A stretch of 64,000 nt of DNA from an uncultured Gemmatimonas sp. (lineage in GTDB: Bacteria > Gemmatimonadota > Gemmatimonadetes > Gemmatimonadales > GWC2-71-9). The stretch lies in NCBI GenBank assembly GCA_964619465.1, contig CAZUES010000005.1, forward strand, positions 12,182 to 76,181. Direction: 5' to 3'. Of the stretch, positions 2,851-8,356 are shown in pieces (the stretch's first letter is position 1; each line of letters begins with the position of its first letter). Under the pieces are notes generated by a model that ran no database searches, was not told the origin of the DNA, and saw only the letters and a program-made list of their open reading frames with translations. Position numbers and translations under genes: made by a program.

Positions 2851-4005
2851 TCAGTACCGGTTGAGGCTGGGATCCACGTCGGTCCGCCAGGCGAGGATCC
2901 CGCCCGACAGATTGGTGACCTGCGTGAAGCCAGCGTCGACCAGCTGCTCGGCTGCCTGCAAGCTCCGCACGCCGCCCTTACAGTAGACCACGACCTCCCG
3001 GTCGCGGGGAATCTGCTCGAACGACCGCCCGACCTCGCCGAGCGGGATCAGCTCCGCCCCTTCGATCCGCGCGATGGCCCACTCGTGCGGCTCGCGCACA
3101 TCGAGCAGGAAGAAATCGTCGCCCCGCTTCCGCTTGGCATCGAGGTCGGTGGCCGAGATCTCCCGCACGCCGGACTTGGCGGGCGGTACCTCGCATGCGA
3201 CATCGAGATCGACCAGTTCCTTGATCTCGCGAGTGCCGCAGGCCGGGCAGTTCGGATCCTTGCGCACCTTGAGCCGCCGGAACTGCATGTCGAGCGCGTC
3301 GACCAGCAGCAGCTCACCGATCAGCGGCCGGCCGATGCCCAGCACCAGCTTGATGGCCTCGGTTGCCTGGATGGTTCCCACCAACCCGGGAAGCACACCC
3401 AACACGCCGCCTTCGGCGCAGTTAGGCACCGCGCCGGCCGGCGGCGGAACCCGGAAGAGGCAGCGATAGCAGGGACCATCCTTGGTCGCAAAGACCGAGG
3501 CCTGGCCCTCGAAACGGAAGATGCTGCCATACGCATTGGGTACGCCGGTGAGCACGCAAGCATCGTTGACCAGGTAGCGGGTGCCGAAGTTGTCGGTCCC
3601 GTCCACCACCACGTCATACCCTTCGATGATCTCGAGCGCGTTCTCGGCCGAGAGGCGCGTGTCGTAGCGTTCAAGCTTGGTGTACGGGTTCAGGTTGAGC
3701 AGCCGCGCTTCGGCGGAGTCGAGCTTCGACTGGCCGACCGTACTGGTGCTGTGCAGGATCTGCCGCTGCAGATTCGAGGCATCGACGGTATCGAAATCGA
3801 CGAGACCCAGGTGACCGACACCGGCCGCCGCCAGGTAGAGCGCCACCGGCGAGCCAAGTCCGCCGGCGCCGACGATAAGGATACGTGACCTCTTGAGCTG
3901 TTCCTGCCCGGCAAGCCCGACTTCCGGGAGAATGATGTGACGGCTGTAGCGAACCAGTTCATCCTGGCTCAGCGTACCAGCCGCGCGGGGAGCGACCGAG
4001 GCCAT
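2851..4005 (-). CDS. moeZ: MoeB/ThiF-type adenylyltransferase fused to a C-terminal rhodanese domain (MoeZ-like sulfur-carrier activating enzyme)
   Basis: Contains the RYSRHI...VGAGGLGSP nucleotide loop, CYRC...CPAC zinc motifs, and a C-terminal rhodanese loop VVYCKGGVRS. Start taken at MASVAPR (ATG 4005); the alternative is 4053. Confidence 0.85.
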   Translation of the reverse strand: MASVAPRAAGTLSQDELVRYSRHIILPEVGLAGQEQLKRSRILIVGAGGLGSPVALYLAAAGVGHLGLVDFDTVDASNLQRQILHSTSTVGQSKLDSAEARLLNLNPYTKLERYDTRLSAENALEIIEGYDVVVDGTDNFGTRYLVNDACVLTGVPNAYGSIFRFEGQASVFATKDGPCYRCLFRVPPPAGAVPNCAEGGVLGVLPGLVGTIQATEAIKLVLGIGRPLIGELLLVDALDMQFRRLKVRKDPNCPACGTREIKELVDLDVACEVPPAKSGVREISATDLDAKRKRGDDFFLLDVREPHEWAIARIEGAELIPLGEVGRSFEQIPRDREVVVYCKGGVRSLQAAEQLVDAGFTQVTNLSGGILAWRTDVDPSLNRY

Positions 4006-4009
4006 GGCG

Positions 4010-4285
4010 TCAACCTCCCGCGATGGCCGACACGACACTGATGTCGTCGCCATCCTTGACCGGAGTGTCGAGGCCGCTCAGGAAGCGGGCATCTTCGTCG
4101 TTGACGTAGATCGTGACAAAAGCGTTGGCCGGGTCGGTCGCCTGCTCGAGCCGGCGACCGAGTTCGGGGTAGTCGCGGGTAACGTGATTCAACGCCTCAC
4201 CCAGCGTGGCGCCGGAAACGGTGTGGGCCTTGAGACCGCCGGCGTGACGCGCGAGAACGGTGGGAAGCGTGATGGTGACAGCCAT
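4010..4285 (-). CDS. ubiquitin-like sulfur-carrier protein (MoaD/ThiS/CysO family)
   Basis: 91 aa, ending ...VVSAIAGG directly before the stop. It lies between the ThrC-like and MoeZ-like genes, with gaps of 15 and 4 nt. Confidence 0.8.
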   Translation of the reverse strand: MAVTITLPTVLARHAGGLKAHTVSGATLGEALNHVTRDYPELGRRLEQATDPANAFVTIYVNDEDARFLSGLDTPVKDGDDISVVSAIAGG

Positions 4286-4300
4286 GGTAGTACTCCGCTC

Positions 4301-5554
4301 TCAGTGTTGGTACGCGTCGACGACTTTCGCGACGTCGCCGAGCTTGCTCGAAACGACCGGAATGTCGAAGAAATCGGGAGACACGGCATCGGGCGTCTTG
4401 AGCCCGTGCGCCGTGATGCAGATGACGACTTCGTCATCCTTGGTAAAGTGGCCCTTGGCAGCCAGCGCCTGCGCCGCCGCCGTGGTAACGCCGCCCGCCG
4501 TCTCCGTGAAGACGCCGGTGGTCTCGGCCAGAATCCGGATGGCCTGGATCAGCTCTTGATCGGAAACCGCCGCCGCCCAGCCGCCGCTCTCGCGGATGCA
4601 GTGCGCCGCCCGGGCGCCGTCGGCCGGCGCACCGATGGCCAGCGACTTGGCGATGGTATTCGGGATCACCGGGGTGATGGTGGTGGCGCCGCTCTCGACC
4701 GCGTTGACGATGGGCGAGCAGCCGGTGGCCTGCGCACCATAGAGCCGGGGCGCCGAGTCCGTCGCGAGGCCCGCCGCACGAATCTCCCCGAAACCCTTAT
4801 GCAGTTTGGACAGGAGCGACCCGCCGGCAAGCGGCGCCACCACCGCCGTCGGAAGCCGCCAGCCGAGCTGTTCGGCAATTTCAAAGGCCACCGTCTTGGA
4901 ACCTTCGCCGTAGTAGGGGCGGAGGTTGACGTTGACGATACCCCAGGCGTAGCGATCAGCCAGCTGGGCACAGAGGCGGTTCACGTCGTCGTAGTTGCCC
5001 TTGACCTTGAGCACCCGGGCGCCGGCCACCGCCGAGGCGAGGATCTTGGCGGGCTCGAGCGTTTCCGGCACCAGCACCCAGGCCGGGATCCCGGCGCGCG
5101 CCGCATGCGCCGCAACGGCGATCGCGAGATTGCCGGTCGAGGCGCAGCCGATCGTGGTCAGGCCGAGCCCGGCCGCCGCATTGATGGCGCTGGCCACCAC
5201 GCGGTCCTTGAACGAAAGGGTCGGATGGACCACTGTGTCGTTCTTAACCCAGGCCCGTGCCACGCCGAGCAGCTTGGCGAGCCGCGGGGCTTCGACCAGC
5301 GGGGTAAAGCCGGTATCGAGGGAGTAGATCGGCTCGCCCAGGAACGGGAGCCATTCACGGTAACGCCAGAGCGAGGGGGCCCGATCCGCGATCTCTTCGC
5401 GGCTCGGCAGACGTCGAGCAGGATCGTAGTAGGGCTCGAGCGGTCCGAGACACTCCGGACAGATGGCCTGAGCAATCGGTTCGTGCGAGATACCGCAGTG
5501 GCCGCAAACGAGCGGAACGGGCTGAGTGGAAGCTTCGAGCGATACGACGGTCAA
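4301..5554 (-). CDS. threonine synthase-family PLP enzyme with an N-terminal zinc ribbon (ThrC or ThrC-like homocysteine synthase)
   Basis: Contains the PLP-lysine motif HPTLSFKDR, the N-terminal CGHCG...CPEC, and glycine-rich loops. Start is uncertain: I prefer TTG 5554, preceded by GGAGAGAGAG; the track start at 5632 is a GTG that gives an implausible N-terminus. Confidence 0.8.
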   Translation of the reverse strand: MTVVSLEASTQPVPLVCGHCGISHEPIAQAICPECLGPLEPYYDPARRLPSREEIADRAPSLWRYREWLPFLGEPIYSLDTGFTPLVEAPRLAKLLGVARAWVKNDTVVHPTLSFKDRVVASAINAAAGLGLTTIGCASTGNLAIAVAAHAARAGIPAWVLVPETLEPAKILASAVAGARVLKVKGNYDDVNRLCAQLADRYAWGIVNVNLRPYYGEGSKTVAFEIAEQLGWRLPTAVVAPLAGGSLLSKLHKGFGEIRAAGLATDSAPRLYGAQATGCSPIVNAVESGATTITPVIPNTIAKSLAIGAPADGARAAHCIRESGGWAAAVSDQELIQAIRILAETTGVFTETAGGVTTAAAQALAAKGHFTKDDEVVICITAHGLKTPDAVSPDFFDIPVVSSKLGDVAKVVDAYQH

Positions 5555-5788
5555 GGGACTCTCTCTCCATCCCCACACGTCCCGGGTCTCGAGGCCCCGG
5601 AAAAGAAAAATCGCCCGGGTGCCAAAAGACACGCGAGCGCGTGGCTTTTTAGCGTTTGTTTAGCGTGGCCGCAATATGCCGCAAATTGCCACGAGCCAAC
5701 AATTGTCCCCAAACGCTAACACTCGGCCCCGAATCGCGCAAGGGGTGGGCTCTTGCGGCCGGAAGGGCCGCTCACTAGCTTGTCGGCC

Positions 5789-5887
5789 ATGTTCGCAACG
5801 AAGCGCACCGGCACGACGTCCACGACCTTCATGACGAAGGGCGGCATGACCATGTGCAGCCGGCGCGGCGCGAACGACACAGACTGA
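5789..5887 (+). CDS. candidate 32-aa leader peptide MFATKRTGTTSTTFMTKGGMTMCSRRGANDTD
   Basis: Found by manual reading; it is under 60 aa and so absent from the track. It has 9 Thr, 4 Met and 2 Lys codons, G/C at nearly all wobble positions, and is followed by a terminator and then asd. The SD is weak; an alternative TTG start at 5780 follows GGAAGGG. Confidence 0.35.
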   Translation: MFATKRTGTTSTTFMTKGGMTMCSRRGANDTD

Positions 5888-5915
5888 CGCAAGTAACCAG
5901 ACTGGATTGTCCAAC

Positions 5916-5952
5916 GCCCCGCGCCTCGAACGAGCGCGGGGCTTTTCATTTT
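5916..5952 (+). terminator. intrinsic terminator/attenuator hairpin immediately upstream of the asd ribosome-binding site
   Basis: A 9-bp stem GCCCCGCGC (5916-5924) pairs with GCGCGGGGC (5934-5942) around a 9-nt loop, followed by TTTTCATTTT. The GAGGAG SD is at 5954-5959 and the asd GTG at 5967. No plus-strand gene lies upstream for it to terminate. Confidence 0.6.
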
Positions 5953-5966
5953 CGAGGAGCGTTCTC

Positions 5967-7022
5967 GTGACGTCCCGTATCCCCGTAGCGATTCTCGGTG
6001 CCACCGGCACCGTCGGTCAGAAGCTGATCCGCCTGCTGGACAACCATCCCTGGTTCGAAGTGGCCGTGCTCACGGCCTCCGAAACAAGCGCGGGGCGTCC
6101 CTACGCCGAGGTGGTGCGCTGGCGCGAACCCACGCCGCTGCCTGAGCAGGTCGGCAAGCTGGTGATCCAATCGAGCACCACGGCCGTCTCGGTCCCGCTG
6201 GCTTTCTCGGCGCTCGATACCCAGGCCGCGGTGACGATCGAACCGATCTGGGCCCAGGCAGGCGTCGTGATCGTCACCAATGCGAGTCCGACCCGGATGA
6301 ACCCGGACGTACCGCTGATCGTGGCCGAGATCAATGCCGATCACATCGGGCTGCTGCCGCATCAACGGGCCGTGCGCGGCTGGCCAGGGGCCATCGTCGC
6401 CAACCCGAACTGTACCACCACGGGACTGGTACTGGCCCTGGCGCCGCTCCATGCCCGCTTCGGGATCGACCGGCTGGTCGTCTCGACCATGCAGGCCATT
6501 TCCGGCGCCGGGTGGCCGGGCGTGGCGTCGCTCGACATCACGGGCAACGTGGTGCCCTACATCGGCGGCGAGGAGGAGAAGGTCGAGAGCGAAACACGGA
6601 AGATCCTGGGCAGCCTGAGCGGCAACGGCATCAGCGAAGCGCCCGTCATCGTCAGCGCGCACACCAACCGGGTACCGGTCATCGACGGGCACACCGAAAC
6701 CGTGTCGATCGGGTTCACCCGGCGCGTGTCGCCCGAGGAAGTTCGCGACGCGCTGAGCAGCTGGCGCCCCGATCCGCGGATCCTGGCCCTGCCGTCGAGC
6801 CCCGAGCAGCCCGTCGTGGTCGATGACCGTCCGGATCGTCCGCAACCTCGGCTCGATCTCGAGCGCGGCCGCGGCATGACGGCCACGGTCGGGCGAATCC
6901 GCCCCTGCCCCGTCTTCGACATCCGCTTCGTCGTCCTGAGCCACAACACAGTGCGCGGCGCGGCCGGCGCCACTATCCAGAACGCCGAGTTGCTGGTCAG
7001 CGAAGGGATCGTCCCCAGATGA
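5967..7022 (+). CDS. asd: aspartate-semialdehyde dehydrogenase
   Basis: Contains ILGATGTVGQ (Rossmann fold), the active-site region NPNCTTTG, and SGAG. The GTG start follows a GAGGAG SD. The stop overlaps the ask start (ATGA). Confidence 0.9.
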   Translation: MTSRIPVAILGATGTVGQKLIRLLDNHPWFEVAVLTASETSAGRPYAEVVRWREPTPLPEQVGKLVIQSSTTAVSVPLAFSALDTQAAVTIEPIWAQAGVVIVTNASPTRMNPDVPLIVAEINADHIGLLPHQRAVRGWPGAIVANPNCTTTGLVLALAPLHARFGIDRLVVSTMQAISGAGWPGVASLDITGNVVPYIGGEEEKVESETRKILGSLSGNGISEAPVIVSAHTNRVPVIDGHTETVSIGFTRRVSPEEVRDALSSWRPDPRILALPSSPEQPVVVDDRPDRPQPRLDLERGRGMTATVGRIRPCPVFDIRFVVLSHNTVRGAAGATIQNAELLVSEGIVPR

Positions 7023-8356
7023 TCGTCGCAAAATTCGGCGGAACCTCCGTGGCCGACGCCGACGCCATCAAGCGATTGGTGGGCATCGTAGCGGAGCGCC
7101 AGACAGAGCGACCTGTGGTGGTCGTATCCGCCCTGGCCCGTATTACGGATGCGCTGCTCGACCTGGAACATGCCGGCGCCACGCTCGAAGCCAGGCTCTC
7201 GGCCATCCTGGAACGCCATCGCACCGTAGCAAGTAACCTGGGCCTTCCGCCTGCTGCGTTTGCCCGGATCGAGGAGGACGCCCAGGCGCTCCGGCAGTGG
7301 CTCGCCCTGCGGGCCGGGAGCCCCTGGCGGCCGTTCGAATCGGACCATGTGGTGAGTCACGGAGAACTCTGGAGTTCGCGCCTGGTCGCGGCGGCGCTCG
7401 AGTCCTCGGGTGTGGCAAGCAGCTGGGTCGATGCGCGACAAGTGGTCGTGACCGATGCCCGGTTCACCAAGGCCATCCCGCAGTTCGATGAGATCAAGAG
7501 GTGTGCCGAGTGCCTGATCAGGCCGCTGACCGAAGGGAGTATCGTTCCGGTCACCCAGGGCTTCATCGGTGGCACCTCCGACGGCCAGACCACCACGCTC
7601 GGCCGCGGCGGCTCGGACTATACCGCCTCACTGCTCGGCGCTGCGCTCGGGGCGGCGCGGGTCGAGATCTGGACCGACGTCGACGGCATTCTCTCGGCCG
7701 ACCCGCGTATCGTCCCCGATGCGCACCTGCTGGCTGAGGCCAGCTATCACGAGGCTGCCGAGCTGGCGGCGTTCGGGGCCAAGGTACTGCACCCGGCTAC
7801 GCAGTCGCCGCTGGTCGACGCCGGGATTCCCTGCTGGGTGCTCAACTCGTTTGCCCCCGAACGGCCGGGAACCCGCATCGTGGCCGGCGCCAGGCCGACC
7901 TTCGTGGGCAACTCCCCGGTGCGCTCGATCGCCTGGAAAGGCGGCATCACCATCATCAACGTCCGCGCGCCTCGACGGCTTGGCGCGGTGGAGTTTCTCC
8001 AGCAGCTCTTCGGCGTCTTTGCCACTCACGGCGTCGCGGTCGACGTGCTGGCCTCGAGCGAGGTCAACGTCTCGGTCACCATCGACGGCACCACCGAGCG
8101 GACCGGCCTGCTGCGGGATCTCCAGACCCTCGGCACGGTCACTGTACTCGACGGGCGGGCCATCGTGGCGGTCATCGGGGTCGACCTCCGCGGCACCCGG
8201 GGCCTGTCGGCCCGCTTGTTCCATGCGGTGCGCGACGTCAACATTGAGGTGATCTCGCAGGGCGCCTCGGAGATCAACGTCACCTTCGTGGTCCGCGAAG
8301 AGGACGGGCCGCACGCGGTCAAGGCACTCCACCGGGAGTTCTTCACCGCAGCCTGA
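7019..8356 (+). CDS. ask: aspartate kinase
   Basis: The N-terminus MIVAKFGGTSVAD is typical. GRGGSDYTA is present, along with C-terminal ACT-like repeats. Confidence 0.9.
   Translation: MIVAKFGGTSVADADAIKRLVGIVAERQTERPVVVVSALARITDALLDLEHAGATLEARLSAILERHRTVASNLGLPPAAFARIEEDAQALRQWLALRAGSPWRPFESDHVVSHGELWSSRLVAAALESSGVASSWVDARQVVVTDARFTKAIPQFDEIKRCAECLIRPLTEGSIVPVTQGFIGGTSDGQTTTLGRGGSDYTASLLGAALGAARVEIWTDVDGILSADPRIVPDAHLLAEASYHEAAELAAFGAKVLHPATQSPLVDAGIPCWVLNSFAPERPGTRIVAGARPTFVGNSPVRSIAWKGGITIINVRAPRRLGAVEFLQQLFGVFATHGVAVDVLASSEVNVSVTIDGTTERTGLLRDLQTLGTVTVLDGRAIVAVIGVDLRGTRGLSARLFHAVRDVNIEVISQGASEINVTFVVREEDGPHAVKALHREFFTAA

Follow-up and report, generated by a model that had tools for sequence, protein, structure and literature searches.

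We find that the asd-ask operon in a 64,000-nt stretch of a contig from an uncultured Gemmatimonas sp. (CAZUES010000005.1; the whole stretch is called the window below) is preceded by a short open reading frame (ORF) which, as in trpL and thrL, is enriched in codons for end products of the pathway encoded downstream, here threonine (Thr), lysine (Lys) and methionine (Met). An intrinsic terminator lies between this ORF and asd, and a mutually exclusive antiterminator has its 5′ strand at the 3′-end of the ORF. Based on these elements and on folding models, we consider it quite likely that asd-ask, encoding aspartate-semialdehyde dehydrogenase and aspartate kinase, is controlled by a multivalent, ribosome-mediated leader-peptide transcription attenuator.

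The evidence comes from the window and from a small set of related loci. The window has 65% G+C, and its closest named relatives are metagenome-assembled genomes of Gemmatimonadales. Scans of genomes and metagenome contigs seeded with the Asd protein gave, among the matches listed, only relatives with an Asd identity of 60% or less, which have another operon layout with an M20 peptidase gene overlapping asd, and in which no leader was found directly upstream of asd. Closer relatives were collected individually through a protein cluster search and contig look-ups. Homologous leader ORFs are present in L161, L162, L164, L166, L169–L172, L175 and L176, and the comparisons below use nine distinct homologous leaders, the window included, with the Asd proteins of the relatives being 69–91% identical; with respect to this set, L161 and L162 are near-identical copies of the window leader, L163 being a deletion variant. 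These loci directly show the elements with their geometry and conservation, how the codons are enriched, and which pairings compete at which energies.

The first-pass annotation of this region described a 32-codon ORF at 5789–5887 with nine Thr, four Met (initiator included) and two Lys codons, and this is what we read in the sequence. Its Thr+Lys+Met fraction of 0.45 is the highest among the 201 ATG-started ORFs of 20–50 codons in the six frames of the window (mean 0.105, standard deviation 0.067). That 32 codons are open is by itself not significant in DNA of 65% G+C, where open stretches also occur in the other frames and on the antisense strand. When codon content is pooled over the nine leaders, initiator excluded, and compared with the proteins of the window (2,878 residues), Thr amounts to 23.9% against 6.0% and Lys to 8.3% against 2.1% (both about 4-fold), Met to 8.3% against 0.9% (about 9-fold), whereas isoleucine (Ile) is depleted (1.5% against 5.9%). 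The remaining two frames of the leader DNA contain 0–2 Thr/Lys/Met codons. The enrichment is furthermore restricted to the codons that precede region 2 (the antiterminator's 5′ strand). Of these, 102 of 196 (52%) specify one of the three amino acids, compared with 5 of 68 (7%) between the start of region 2 and the stop codon (Fisher p = 7e-12, a value that overstates independence since the nine leaders are related); in proteins their share is about 9%.

The ORFs range from 25 to 38 codons and the sequence of their body is poorly conserved, with the enrichment retained. As the N-terminal parts can barely be aligned and the lengths differ, the enrichment appears to have been maintained rather than simply inherited. 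Thr is enriched in every leader and each has one to three internal Met codons; Lys codons are frequent in L164, L166, L169 and L171, and L170, L172, L175 and L176 have almost none. What is conserved is a zone 5′ of region 2 that is enriched in Thr and, to a lesser and roughly equal extent, in Lys and Met. The expectation that Thr codons would be enriched in homologous leaders thus holds, but Thr runs as such are not conserved. In line with the earlier proposal that asd is preceded by a short ORF rich in Thr, Met and Lys and by a terminator, all nine distinct leaders have retained the ORF with its start position and enrichment, and likewise the terminator and the complementarity that allows an antiterminator.

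The terminator had been described as a 9-bp G/C hairpin, which is indeed present: GCCCCGCGC (5916–5924) pairs with GCGCGGGGC (5934–5942) across a 9-nt loop, and TTTTCATTTT (5943–5952) follows. A terminator scan detected the hairpin and its T-tract in a shorter 6-pair register (5923–5942), the 9-bp stem being read from the sequence, and the terminator hairpin pattern occurs once in the window against 0.15 expected. The stem is nearly invariant and the terminator is kept in all relatives, with hairpin energies of −20 to −25 kcal/mol across the leaders. No plus-strand gene upstream could own this terminator, as had been noted, since the upstream neighbours are all on the minus strand, and the Shine-Dalgarno sequence (GAGGAG, 5954–5959) and GTG (5967) of asd lie where they had been placed. 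The module travels with asd whichever gene lies 5′ of it: most loci (window included) have a minus-strand PALP gene there, L164 has a co-directional gene for an M20 peptidase/lactonase, and L166 has one for a metallo-beta-lactamase.

Two alternative pairings had been pointed out in the window, and both are found: GGCGCGG (5862–5868) is complementary to CCGCGCC (5919–5925), and CGCACCGGC (5804–5812) matches GCCGGCGCG (5859–5867) at eight of nine positions. In 9/9 leaders the duplex between region 2 and the left arm of the terminator (region 3) reaches −18 to −25 kcal/mol, which only 0–2.5% of random 33-mers from the same locus equal (−20.8 kcal/mol and 1.0% for the window); its pairing register varies between homologues. 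The complete antiterminator stem-loop, in which region 2 and the left arm enclose a spacer hairpin, has energies from −27.6 (window) to −37.8 kcal/mol, and the proposed comparison of terminator with antiterminator in the window therefore reads −21.5 against −27.6 kcal/mol. In each homologue the position of the spacer hairpin is filled by a hairpin of differing sequence.

In RNA made before region 3, N-terminal codons pair with 67–92% of region 2 across the nine leaders; in the window the partners in this upstream-only fold are 5793–5796 and 5804–5812. The stop codon lies 24–31 nt from the left arm of the terminator and region 2 ends 0–14 nt before the stop codon. The 1:2, 2:3 and 3:4 layout suggested from the window sequence is reproduced by folding and recurs in the homologues. 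With a simulated ribosome on transcripts ending before region 4 (the right arm of the terminator), pairing of the left arm holds at about 0.9 for as long as the A-site has not come to the last 8–10 codons, and is 0.4–0.7 thereafter. In the full-length RNA, masking of the N-terminal codons with region 1 lowers the terminator probability in seven of the nine homologues.

Promoter elements were compared in 12 related loci. In all of them a TAnnTT hexamer ends 7–8 nt upstream of the leader ATG and TTG(C/T)(G/C)N is found another 17–18 nt upstream, the sequence of the spacer between the two hexamers being unconserved. The composite TTGC-N-TAnnTT-N6-9-ATG occurs once in 64 kb, with 0.01 expected. 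No purine-rich Shine-Dalgarno sequence is present 5′ of the leader ATG, whereas asd has one. An ATG at 7–8 nt from the −10 element and without a Shine-Dalgarno sequence implies a leaderless mRNA, and from the sequence we therefore lean towards translation of the leader ORF from such an mRNA, starting at or within 1 nt of its 5′-end. The divergent minus-strand promoter, which ends a few nt 5′ of a SAM-II aptamer, looks alike (TTGCGC 5741–5736, a 17-nt spacer and TAGCGT 5718–5713), and this supports the idea that housekeeping promoters of this organism have such a form. A start at TTG 5753 (44-amino-acid ORF with AAGGGG upstream) was considered and rejected, as this TTG is part of the conserved −35 element and as an in-frame TAG, within the −10 element, precedes the ATG in four homologues.

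We suggest that the attenuator could work as follows. Transcription from TTGCGG-17-TAGCTT would begin at, or 1 nt before, ATG 5789, so that the peptide is made from a leaderless mRNA, with the first ~23 codons, rich in Thr and containing Lys and Met codons, acting as the sensor zone. A shortage of charged tRNA-Thr (or of tRNA-Lys or tRNA-Met) would stall the ribosome in this zone, where it would cover region 1 and leave region 2 (5861–5873) free to pair with the newly made left arm (5915–5925); the terminator would then not form and the polymerase would enter asd-ask. If the three amino acids are ample, the ribosome would reach the stop codon, unwinding and covering region 2, the 5916–5942 hairpin and the U-tract would form, and transcription would end before asd.

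Several observations weigh against this model. The nine leaders share kinship, and the pooled statistics thus overstate independence. The transcription start, translation of the ORF, stalling, premature termination and the regulatory outcome are steps that we infer. Both hexamers match the E. coli consensus at only 3/6 positions and a generic sigma-70 promoter scan called no promoter at the leader, which is why the leaderless start is a deduction from geometry. In the window and in L170, the full-length RNA at equilibrium has a terminator probability of about 0.9–1.0 at any position of the simulated ribosome, so that the decision in these two leaders must be kinetic, with the antiterminator forming first; ribosome-free truncated transcripts also fold into the antiterminator at equilibrium. 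A ribosome at the stop codon of the window leader would cover region 2 only partly, since region 2 ends 11 nt upstream. Covariation is minimal, with RNAalifold yielding only the internal hairpin P1, which has one double-sided change, and the terminator; that covariation is nearly absent follows from the invariance of the terminator stem. Taken whole, the leader does not exceed shuffled sequence in stability (z = −0.56), a result that speaks against a fold of the aptamer kind and leaves the case for an attenuator unaffected. Finally, L163 retains a promoter and a terminator despite having lost the ORF body and region 2. In this natural deletion variant (L163, 480–580) about 105 nt are gone, and what remains is the promoter, the ATG, a slightly weakened terminator and a 17-codon ORF running through the hairpin; it may represent a deregulated or decayed attenuator.

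A covariance model built on the 3′ half of the leader (R1) matched convincingly only the window and L174 (1316–1429, 68 bits), with a weak match in L002 (13.5 bits). Further weak matches in L047 and L036 were set aside as T-box terminators, and those in L152 and L127 are analogous leaders. In L174 (1280–1500) and L002 (1780–2000), both Gemmatimonadales relatives, a weaker homologous version of the leader precedes an M20 gene, followed by asd, overlapping M20, and ask, and in L174 the operon continues with dapB and dapA. In the L174 leader about 19% of residues are Thr/Lys/Met and a TAGATT element lies 7 nt 5′ of the ATG, and the L002 ORF is led by an AGAGG Shine-Dalgarno sequence and is not leaderless.

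Leaders of similar design but unrelated in sequence to that of the window are found further away. L029 and L011, both Chloroflexota records, have Thr/Met-rich leaders before ask-asd, and L127 and L152, whose Asd is closest to a Dehalococcoidaceae record (68%), have Thr/Met/Cys-rich ORFs directly before asd (Table 1). In all four the terminator begins 28–32 nt after the stop codon and the 3′ segment of the ORF is complementary to the left arm of the terminator; for L127 and L152 this complementarity amounts to −21.6 kcal/mol, with a control fraction of 0.003 or less. T-box leaders are found upstream of the asd-containing region in two Anaerolineales loci, L036 (166–419, E = 5e-15) and L047 (164–427, E = 2e-9), both under the Rfam gathering score, and the gene after the T-box in L047 starts VQVLKFGGTS, resembling aspartate kinase. 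The entry to the aspartate pathway seems to have been put under tRNA-charging control repeatedly, with the Gemmatimonadales element as one family therein. A more far-reaching proposal would be that the leader does more than count codons: that a trivalent (Thr+Lys+Met) leaderless attenuator integrates all three branches of the aspartate pathway at the enzymes of its common entry, that its conserved C-terminal motif (KGGxxMCGxRG or RHGAA) also causes arrest of the nascent chain or sets the timing, and that this design forms a widespread but so far unrecognised class of asd/ask control in Gemmatimonadota and Chloroflexota; we regard this combination as unlikely.

Table 1. Features of the asd-ask leader in the window, leader peptides of homologous loci, and similar leaders at more distant loci.
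Feature	Locus	Position	Strand	Remarks
−35-like hexamer TTGCGG	window	5753–5758	+	TTG(C/T)(G/C)N kept in 12/12 loci
−10-like hexamer TAGCTT	window	5776–5781	+	TAnnTT kept in 12/12 loci
Leader ORF, 32 codons + TGA	window	5789–5887	+	peptide MFATKRTGTTSTTFMTKGGMTMCSRRGANDTD; ATG 5789, TGA 5885–5887
Region 1, codons 2–8	window	5793–5812	+	pairs with region 2 in upstream-only and full-length folds; putative anti-antiterminator
Internal hairpin P1	window	5826–5840	+	CCTTC/GAAGG; ACCGCC/GGCGG in most homologues; RNAalifold helix
Region 2, antiterminator 5′ strand	window	5861–5873	+	within codons 25–29; ends 11 nt before stop
Spacer hairpin inside antiterminator helix	window	5876–5911	+	folds
Intrinsic terminator	window	5916–5952	+	left arm 5916–5924 (region 3), loop 5925–5933, right arm 5934–5942 (region 4), T-tract 5943–5952
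Shine-Dalgarno GAGGAG of asd	window	5954–5959	+	7 nt before GTG 5967
asd, aspartate-semialdehyde dehydrogenase, asd_EA type	window	5967–7022	+	Pfam, NCBIfam
ask, monofunctional aspartate kinase, LysC-like	window	7019–8356	+	4-nt overlap with asd
Leader peptide	L161			as window except M20T (Met20 to Thr), the sole ORF difference
Leader peptide	L164			MNAATRKTMMTAAPMTGGKSKCVSRGAAGLS
Leader peptide	L166			MSIMTGAKKSTMKTAPTKGGKTMCGLRGAVETS
Leader peptide	L169			MLTLTVKTPKSTTTKTATAKSKGGKTMCGRRGVAEQTS
Leader peptide	L170			MTAMTAPTTRMTAMTGGTTRHGAAA
Leader peptide	L171			MIPVSTPKRTATTAPSKGGTKMCGMRGSPEIS
Leader peptide	L172			MIGYSPSTTTKTMRATMCGGRGGGRT
Leader peptide	L175			MKFHRTPTVAAAMTTMTGGMTTLHRGAPVE
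Leader peptide	L176			MTTATMRKTTTTTAMHGGDSRHGAAR
Thr/Met-rich leader before ask-asd	L029	1320–1440		MTTTMRTTTTPHGAAAASHCR; Chloroflexota, Anaerolineales record
Thr/Met-rich leader before ask-asd	L011	1426–1560		MFCMSMSTTTMMTMTLFQEPLLRAKW; Chloroflexota, Anaerolinea record
Thr/Met/Cys-rich ORF directly before asd	L127	1753–1910		
Thr/Met/Cys-rich ORF directly before asd	L152	102–262		

One could instead imagine that the ORF encodes a functional small protein or nascent peptide, acting through arrest, as a sensor or in trans, with its richness in Thr, Lys and Met being a property of the peptide. The motif K-G-G-x-x-M-C-G-x-R-G is common to seven of ten leaders, the Cys codon within it varies synonymously (UGC/UGU), gene callers annotate the ORF in some contigs, and trans-acting leader peptides are known, such as peTrpL (PMC7298713). 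However, the motif largely overlaps RNA elements that are constrained anyway (GGCGG of P1 and GGCGCGG of region 2), M-C is missing entirely in L170, L175 and L176, and the N-terminal two thirds of the peptides cannot be aligned. A search of protein databases with the 5′-extended 55-amino-acid ORF of L169 returned only an identical 38-amino-acid peptide (P0121) from one other contig, so that the peptide has no detectable homologues beyond itself, and the geometry of terminator and antiterminator would be left unexplained. We find a functional peptide improbable as an account of the leader. As to the motif itself, which in the form K-G-G-[KT]-[TK]-M-C-G-x-R-G is found at 5837–5872 of the window and in homologues, three leaders have (T/S)RHGAA or LHRGA instead, and the leader peptide of L029 from Chloroflexota likewise ends PHGAAA. 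The needs of RNA pairing explain the peptide motif only partly, and we give a nascent-peptide role alongside attenuation a low probability. A role of P1 as a pause or timing hairpin is speculative.

Still less probable, in our view, is sensing by a ligand or a protein instead of a translating ribosome, with the leader as riboswitch, T-box or protein-dependent attenuator and the ORF as incidental. A terminator/antiterminator pair fits any attenuation mechanism, open frames are common in DNA of high G+C content, and the T-box leaders of the Anaerolineales loci L036 and L047 show that other kinds of RNA sensor control this pathway. Against this stands that the leader matched nothing in Rfam, neither Thr_leader (RF00506), Lysine (RF00168) and T-box (RF00230) nor any other family, when positions 5300–6300 of the window (E up to 10) and ten homologous loci (E up to 0.01) were searched. 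The ~70 nt 5′ of region 2 differ between leaders in both length and sequence; apart from a 5-bp hairpin they share no conserved fold, and their stability does not exceed that of shuffles, all of which is unlike an aptamer. The conservation is instead specific to one reading frame, in the position of the ATG and in the 52% Thr/Lys/Met codons found in that frame only. That there is no regulation at all, and that a constitutive partial terminator or 5′-UTR (untranslated region) stability element is accompanied by an ORF and complementarities that are by-products of G+C richness, appears to us the least probable reading, for although G/C-rich segments pair readily, the equilibrium fold of the window always prefers the terminator and L163, from which the ORF body and region 2 are missing, still has promoter and hairpin, the region 2 complementarity is within the top 0–2.5% of same-locus controls in 9/9 leaders, the Thr/Lys/Met enrichment is extreme and restricted to the zone 5′ of region 2, and the same design recurs in unrelated sequence before the same pathway genes in Chloroflexota-type loci.

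Antisense ORFs of 77 and 116 amino acids across the leader were also considered and rejected, since their start and frame are unconserved and all frames have open stretches; the 77-amino-acid ORF, which the first-pass annotation had named as an alternative to the leader ORF, falls with this. Gene callers place the 77-amino-acid ORF over the leader in L161 (1128–1361) and L162 (2250–2483), and in the contigs of L166–L168 and L169 the true leader ORF is annotated instead, as 33 amino acids or, 5′-extended, as 55 amino acids. It is probable that the antisense gene calls are artefacts of annotation.

Aspartate kinase and aspartate-semialdehyde dehydrogenase form the shared entry to the synthesis of lysine, threonine, methionine and isoleucine. 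Balancing several end products at one shared step is a classic regulatory problem, and the known controls of this step include isoenzymes, concerted feedback inhibition, thrL attenuation, lysine riboswitches and T-boxes. In the window, one leader peptide appears to read three charged-tRNA pools simultaneously. The nearest counterpart is thrL (RF00506), found before E. coli thrA, which encodes aspartokinase I-homoserine dehydrogenase I. It likewise has a short ORF rich in end-product codons, 1:2, 2:3 and 3:4 hairpins with an intrinsic terminator before the first structural gene, and the character of a multivalent sensor regulating aspartate kinase. The regulatory codons of thrL are, however, those of Thr and Ile, whereas the window leader would sense Thr, Lys and Met and is depleted of Ile; the operon is thrABC rather than asd-ask with a monofunctional kinase; and the window leader differs in having no Shine-Dalgarno sequence, in being apparently leaderless, in its longer ORF (25–38 codons in the set) and in its phylum, Gemmatimonadota. 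The Rfam model of thrL has no match to it in sequence or structure. In Thermus thermophilus the lysine cluster is controlled by a leader peptide with Lys codons, and in an early study of E. coli asd a typical attenuator was reportedly absent. The lysine riboswitch (L-box) before lysC and the T-box before ask likewise act on aspartate kinase through premature termination at the RNA level, but there the sensor is an RNA that binds a ligand or a tRNA, whereas that of the window leader is predicted to be a translated ORF.

Leaderless leader peptides have been predicted or demonstrated in other phyla. In Deinococcus deserti 14 of them were predicted from mapped 5′-ends (PMC4007540). As in the window, the AUG is at the 5′-end of the transcript following a −10 element and the cognate amino acid is enriched, and these leaders precede amino-acid biosynthesis or tRNA-synthetase genes for which transcription attenuation was proposed (PMC4007540). 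The D. deserti leaders belong to another phylum, are unrelated in sequence, and had their starts mapped by differential RNA sequencing (dRNA-seq), whereas the start proposed here rests on promoter geometry. Leaderless polycysteine short ORFs of mycobacteria (bioRxiv 10.1101/834739) are sensors too, with stalling at codons for the product controlling the downstream operon. In the mycobacterial case the stalled ribosome exposes a ribosome-binding site, giving translational control that responds to Cys only; in the window leader it is an intrinsic terminator that competes, and the Shine-Dalgarno sequence of asd is not part of that structure. Attenuators of the leader-peptide type outside Proteobacteria also include those of ilvB, leuA and trpE in Actinobacteria, Corynebacterium and Staphylococcus, which serve other pathways and among which the ilv leaders are multivalent (Ile/Val/Leu), as is proposed for that of the window (PMC1262725, PMC3890552, PMC5794164). 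A survey of Actinobacteria explicitly states that none of the operons for threonine, lysine or methionine yielded an RNA regulatory structure (PMC1262725).

Our literature searches for leader-peptide attenuators of asd or ask gave nothing relevant, the targets of the 14 D. deserti leaders not being covered by them. The window leader thus looks like a mechanism of the trpL/thrL kind that lies outside the Rfam Thr_leader family and is undescribed before asd/ask in the literature searched. It would be found in a poorly studied phylum with few cultured models, on an mRNA that is probably leaderless, and back to back with a SAM-II riboswitch controlling an operon of the methionine branch. As a small and sharply bounded element it could aid the regulatory annotation of metagenome-assembled genomes of Gemmatimonadota and Chloroflexota, and it could offer a natural case for asking how a 70S-initiated leaderless ORF stays synchronised with RNA polymerase.

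The minus-strand neighbours upstream of the leader encode a ThrC-like pyridoxal-phosphate (PLP) enzyme, a ThiS/MoaD-like protein and a MoeZ-like ThiF-rhodanese protein. They form an operon (2851–5566) that lies behind a SAM riboswitch and begins with the ThrC-like enzyme, which has an N-terminal Cys-rich stretch and which NCBIfam names threonine synthase. The operon looks more like the MetM/MetO/MoeZ thiocarboxylate route from O-phosphohomoserine to homocysteine than like threonine synthesis; this route is described in a 2026 GapMind preprint. The riboswitch is of the SAM-II class (Rfam SAM_alpha, 5629–5702, minus strand) and scores 34.8 bits against a gathering score of 36 (E = 6e-6). A weak SAM-II match coincides with the SAM_alpha match; these two, the only riboswitch matches obtained at 5300–6300 of the window, are on the strand opposite to asd-ask and belong to the divergent operon. 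With a SAM riboswitch in the divergent leader, the intergenic region would consist of two back-to-back promoters, each followed by an RNA-level sensor for the aspartate/methionine pathway. The SAM_alpha riboswitch is kept in six relatives (L162, L163, L169, L172, L175 and L176), in two of which it exceeds the gathering score, and since Rfam calls the family alpha-proteobacterial, its occurrence in a Gemmatimonadales host is unexpected.

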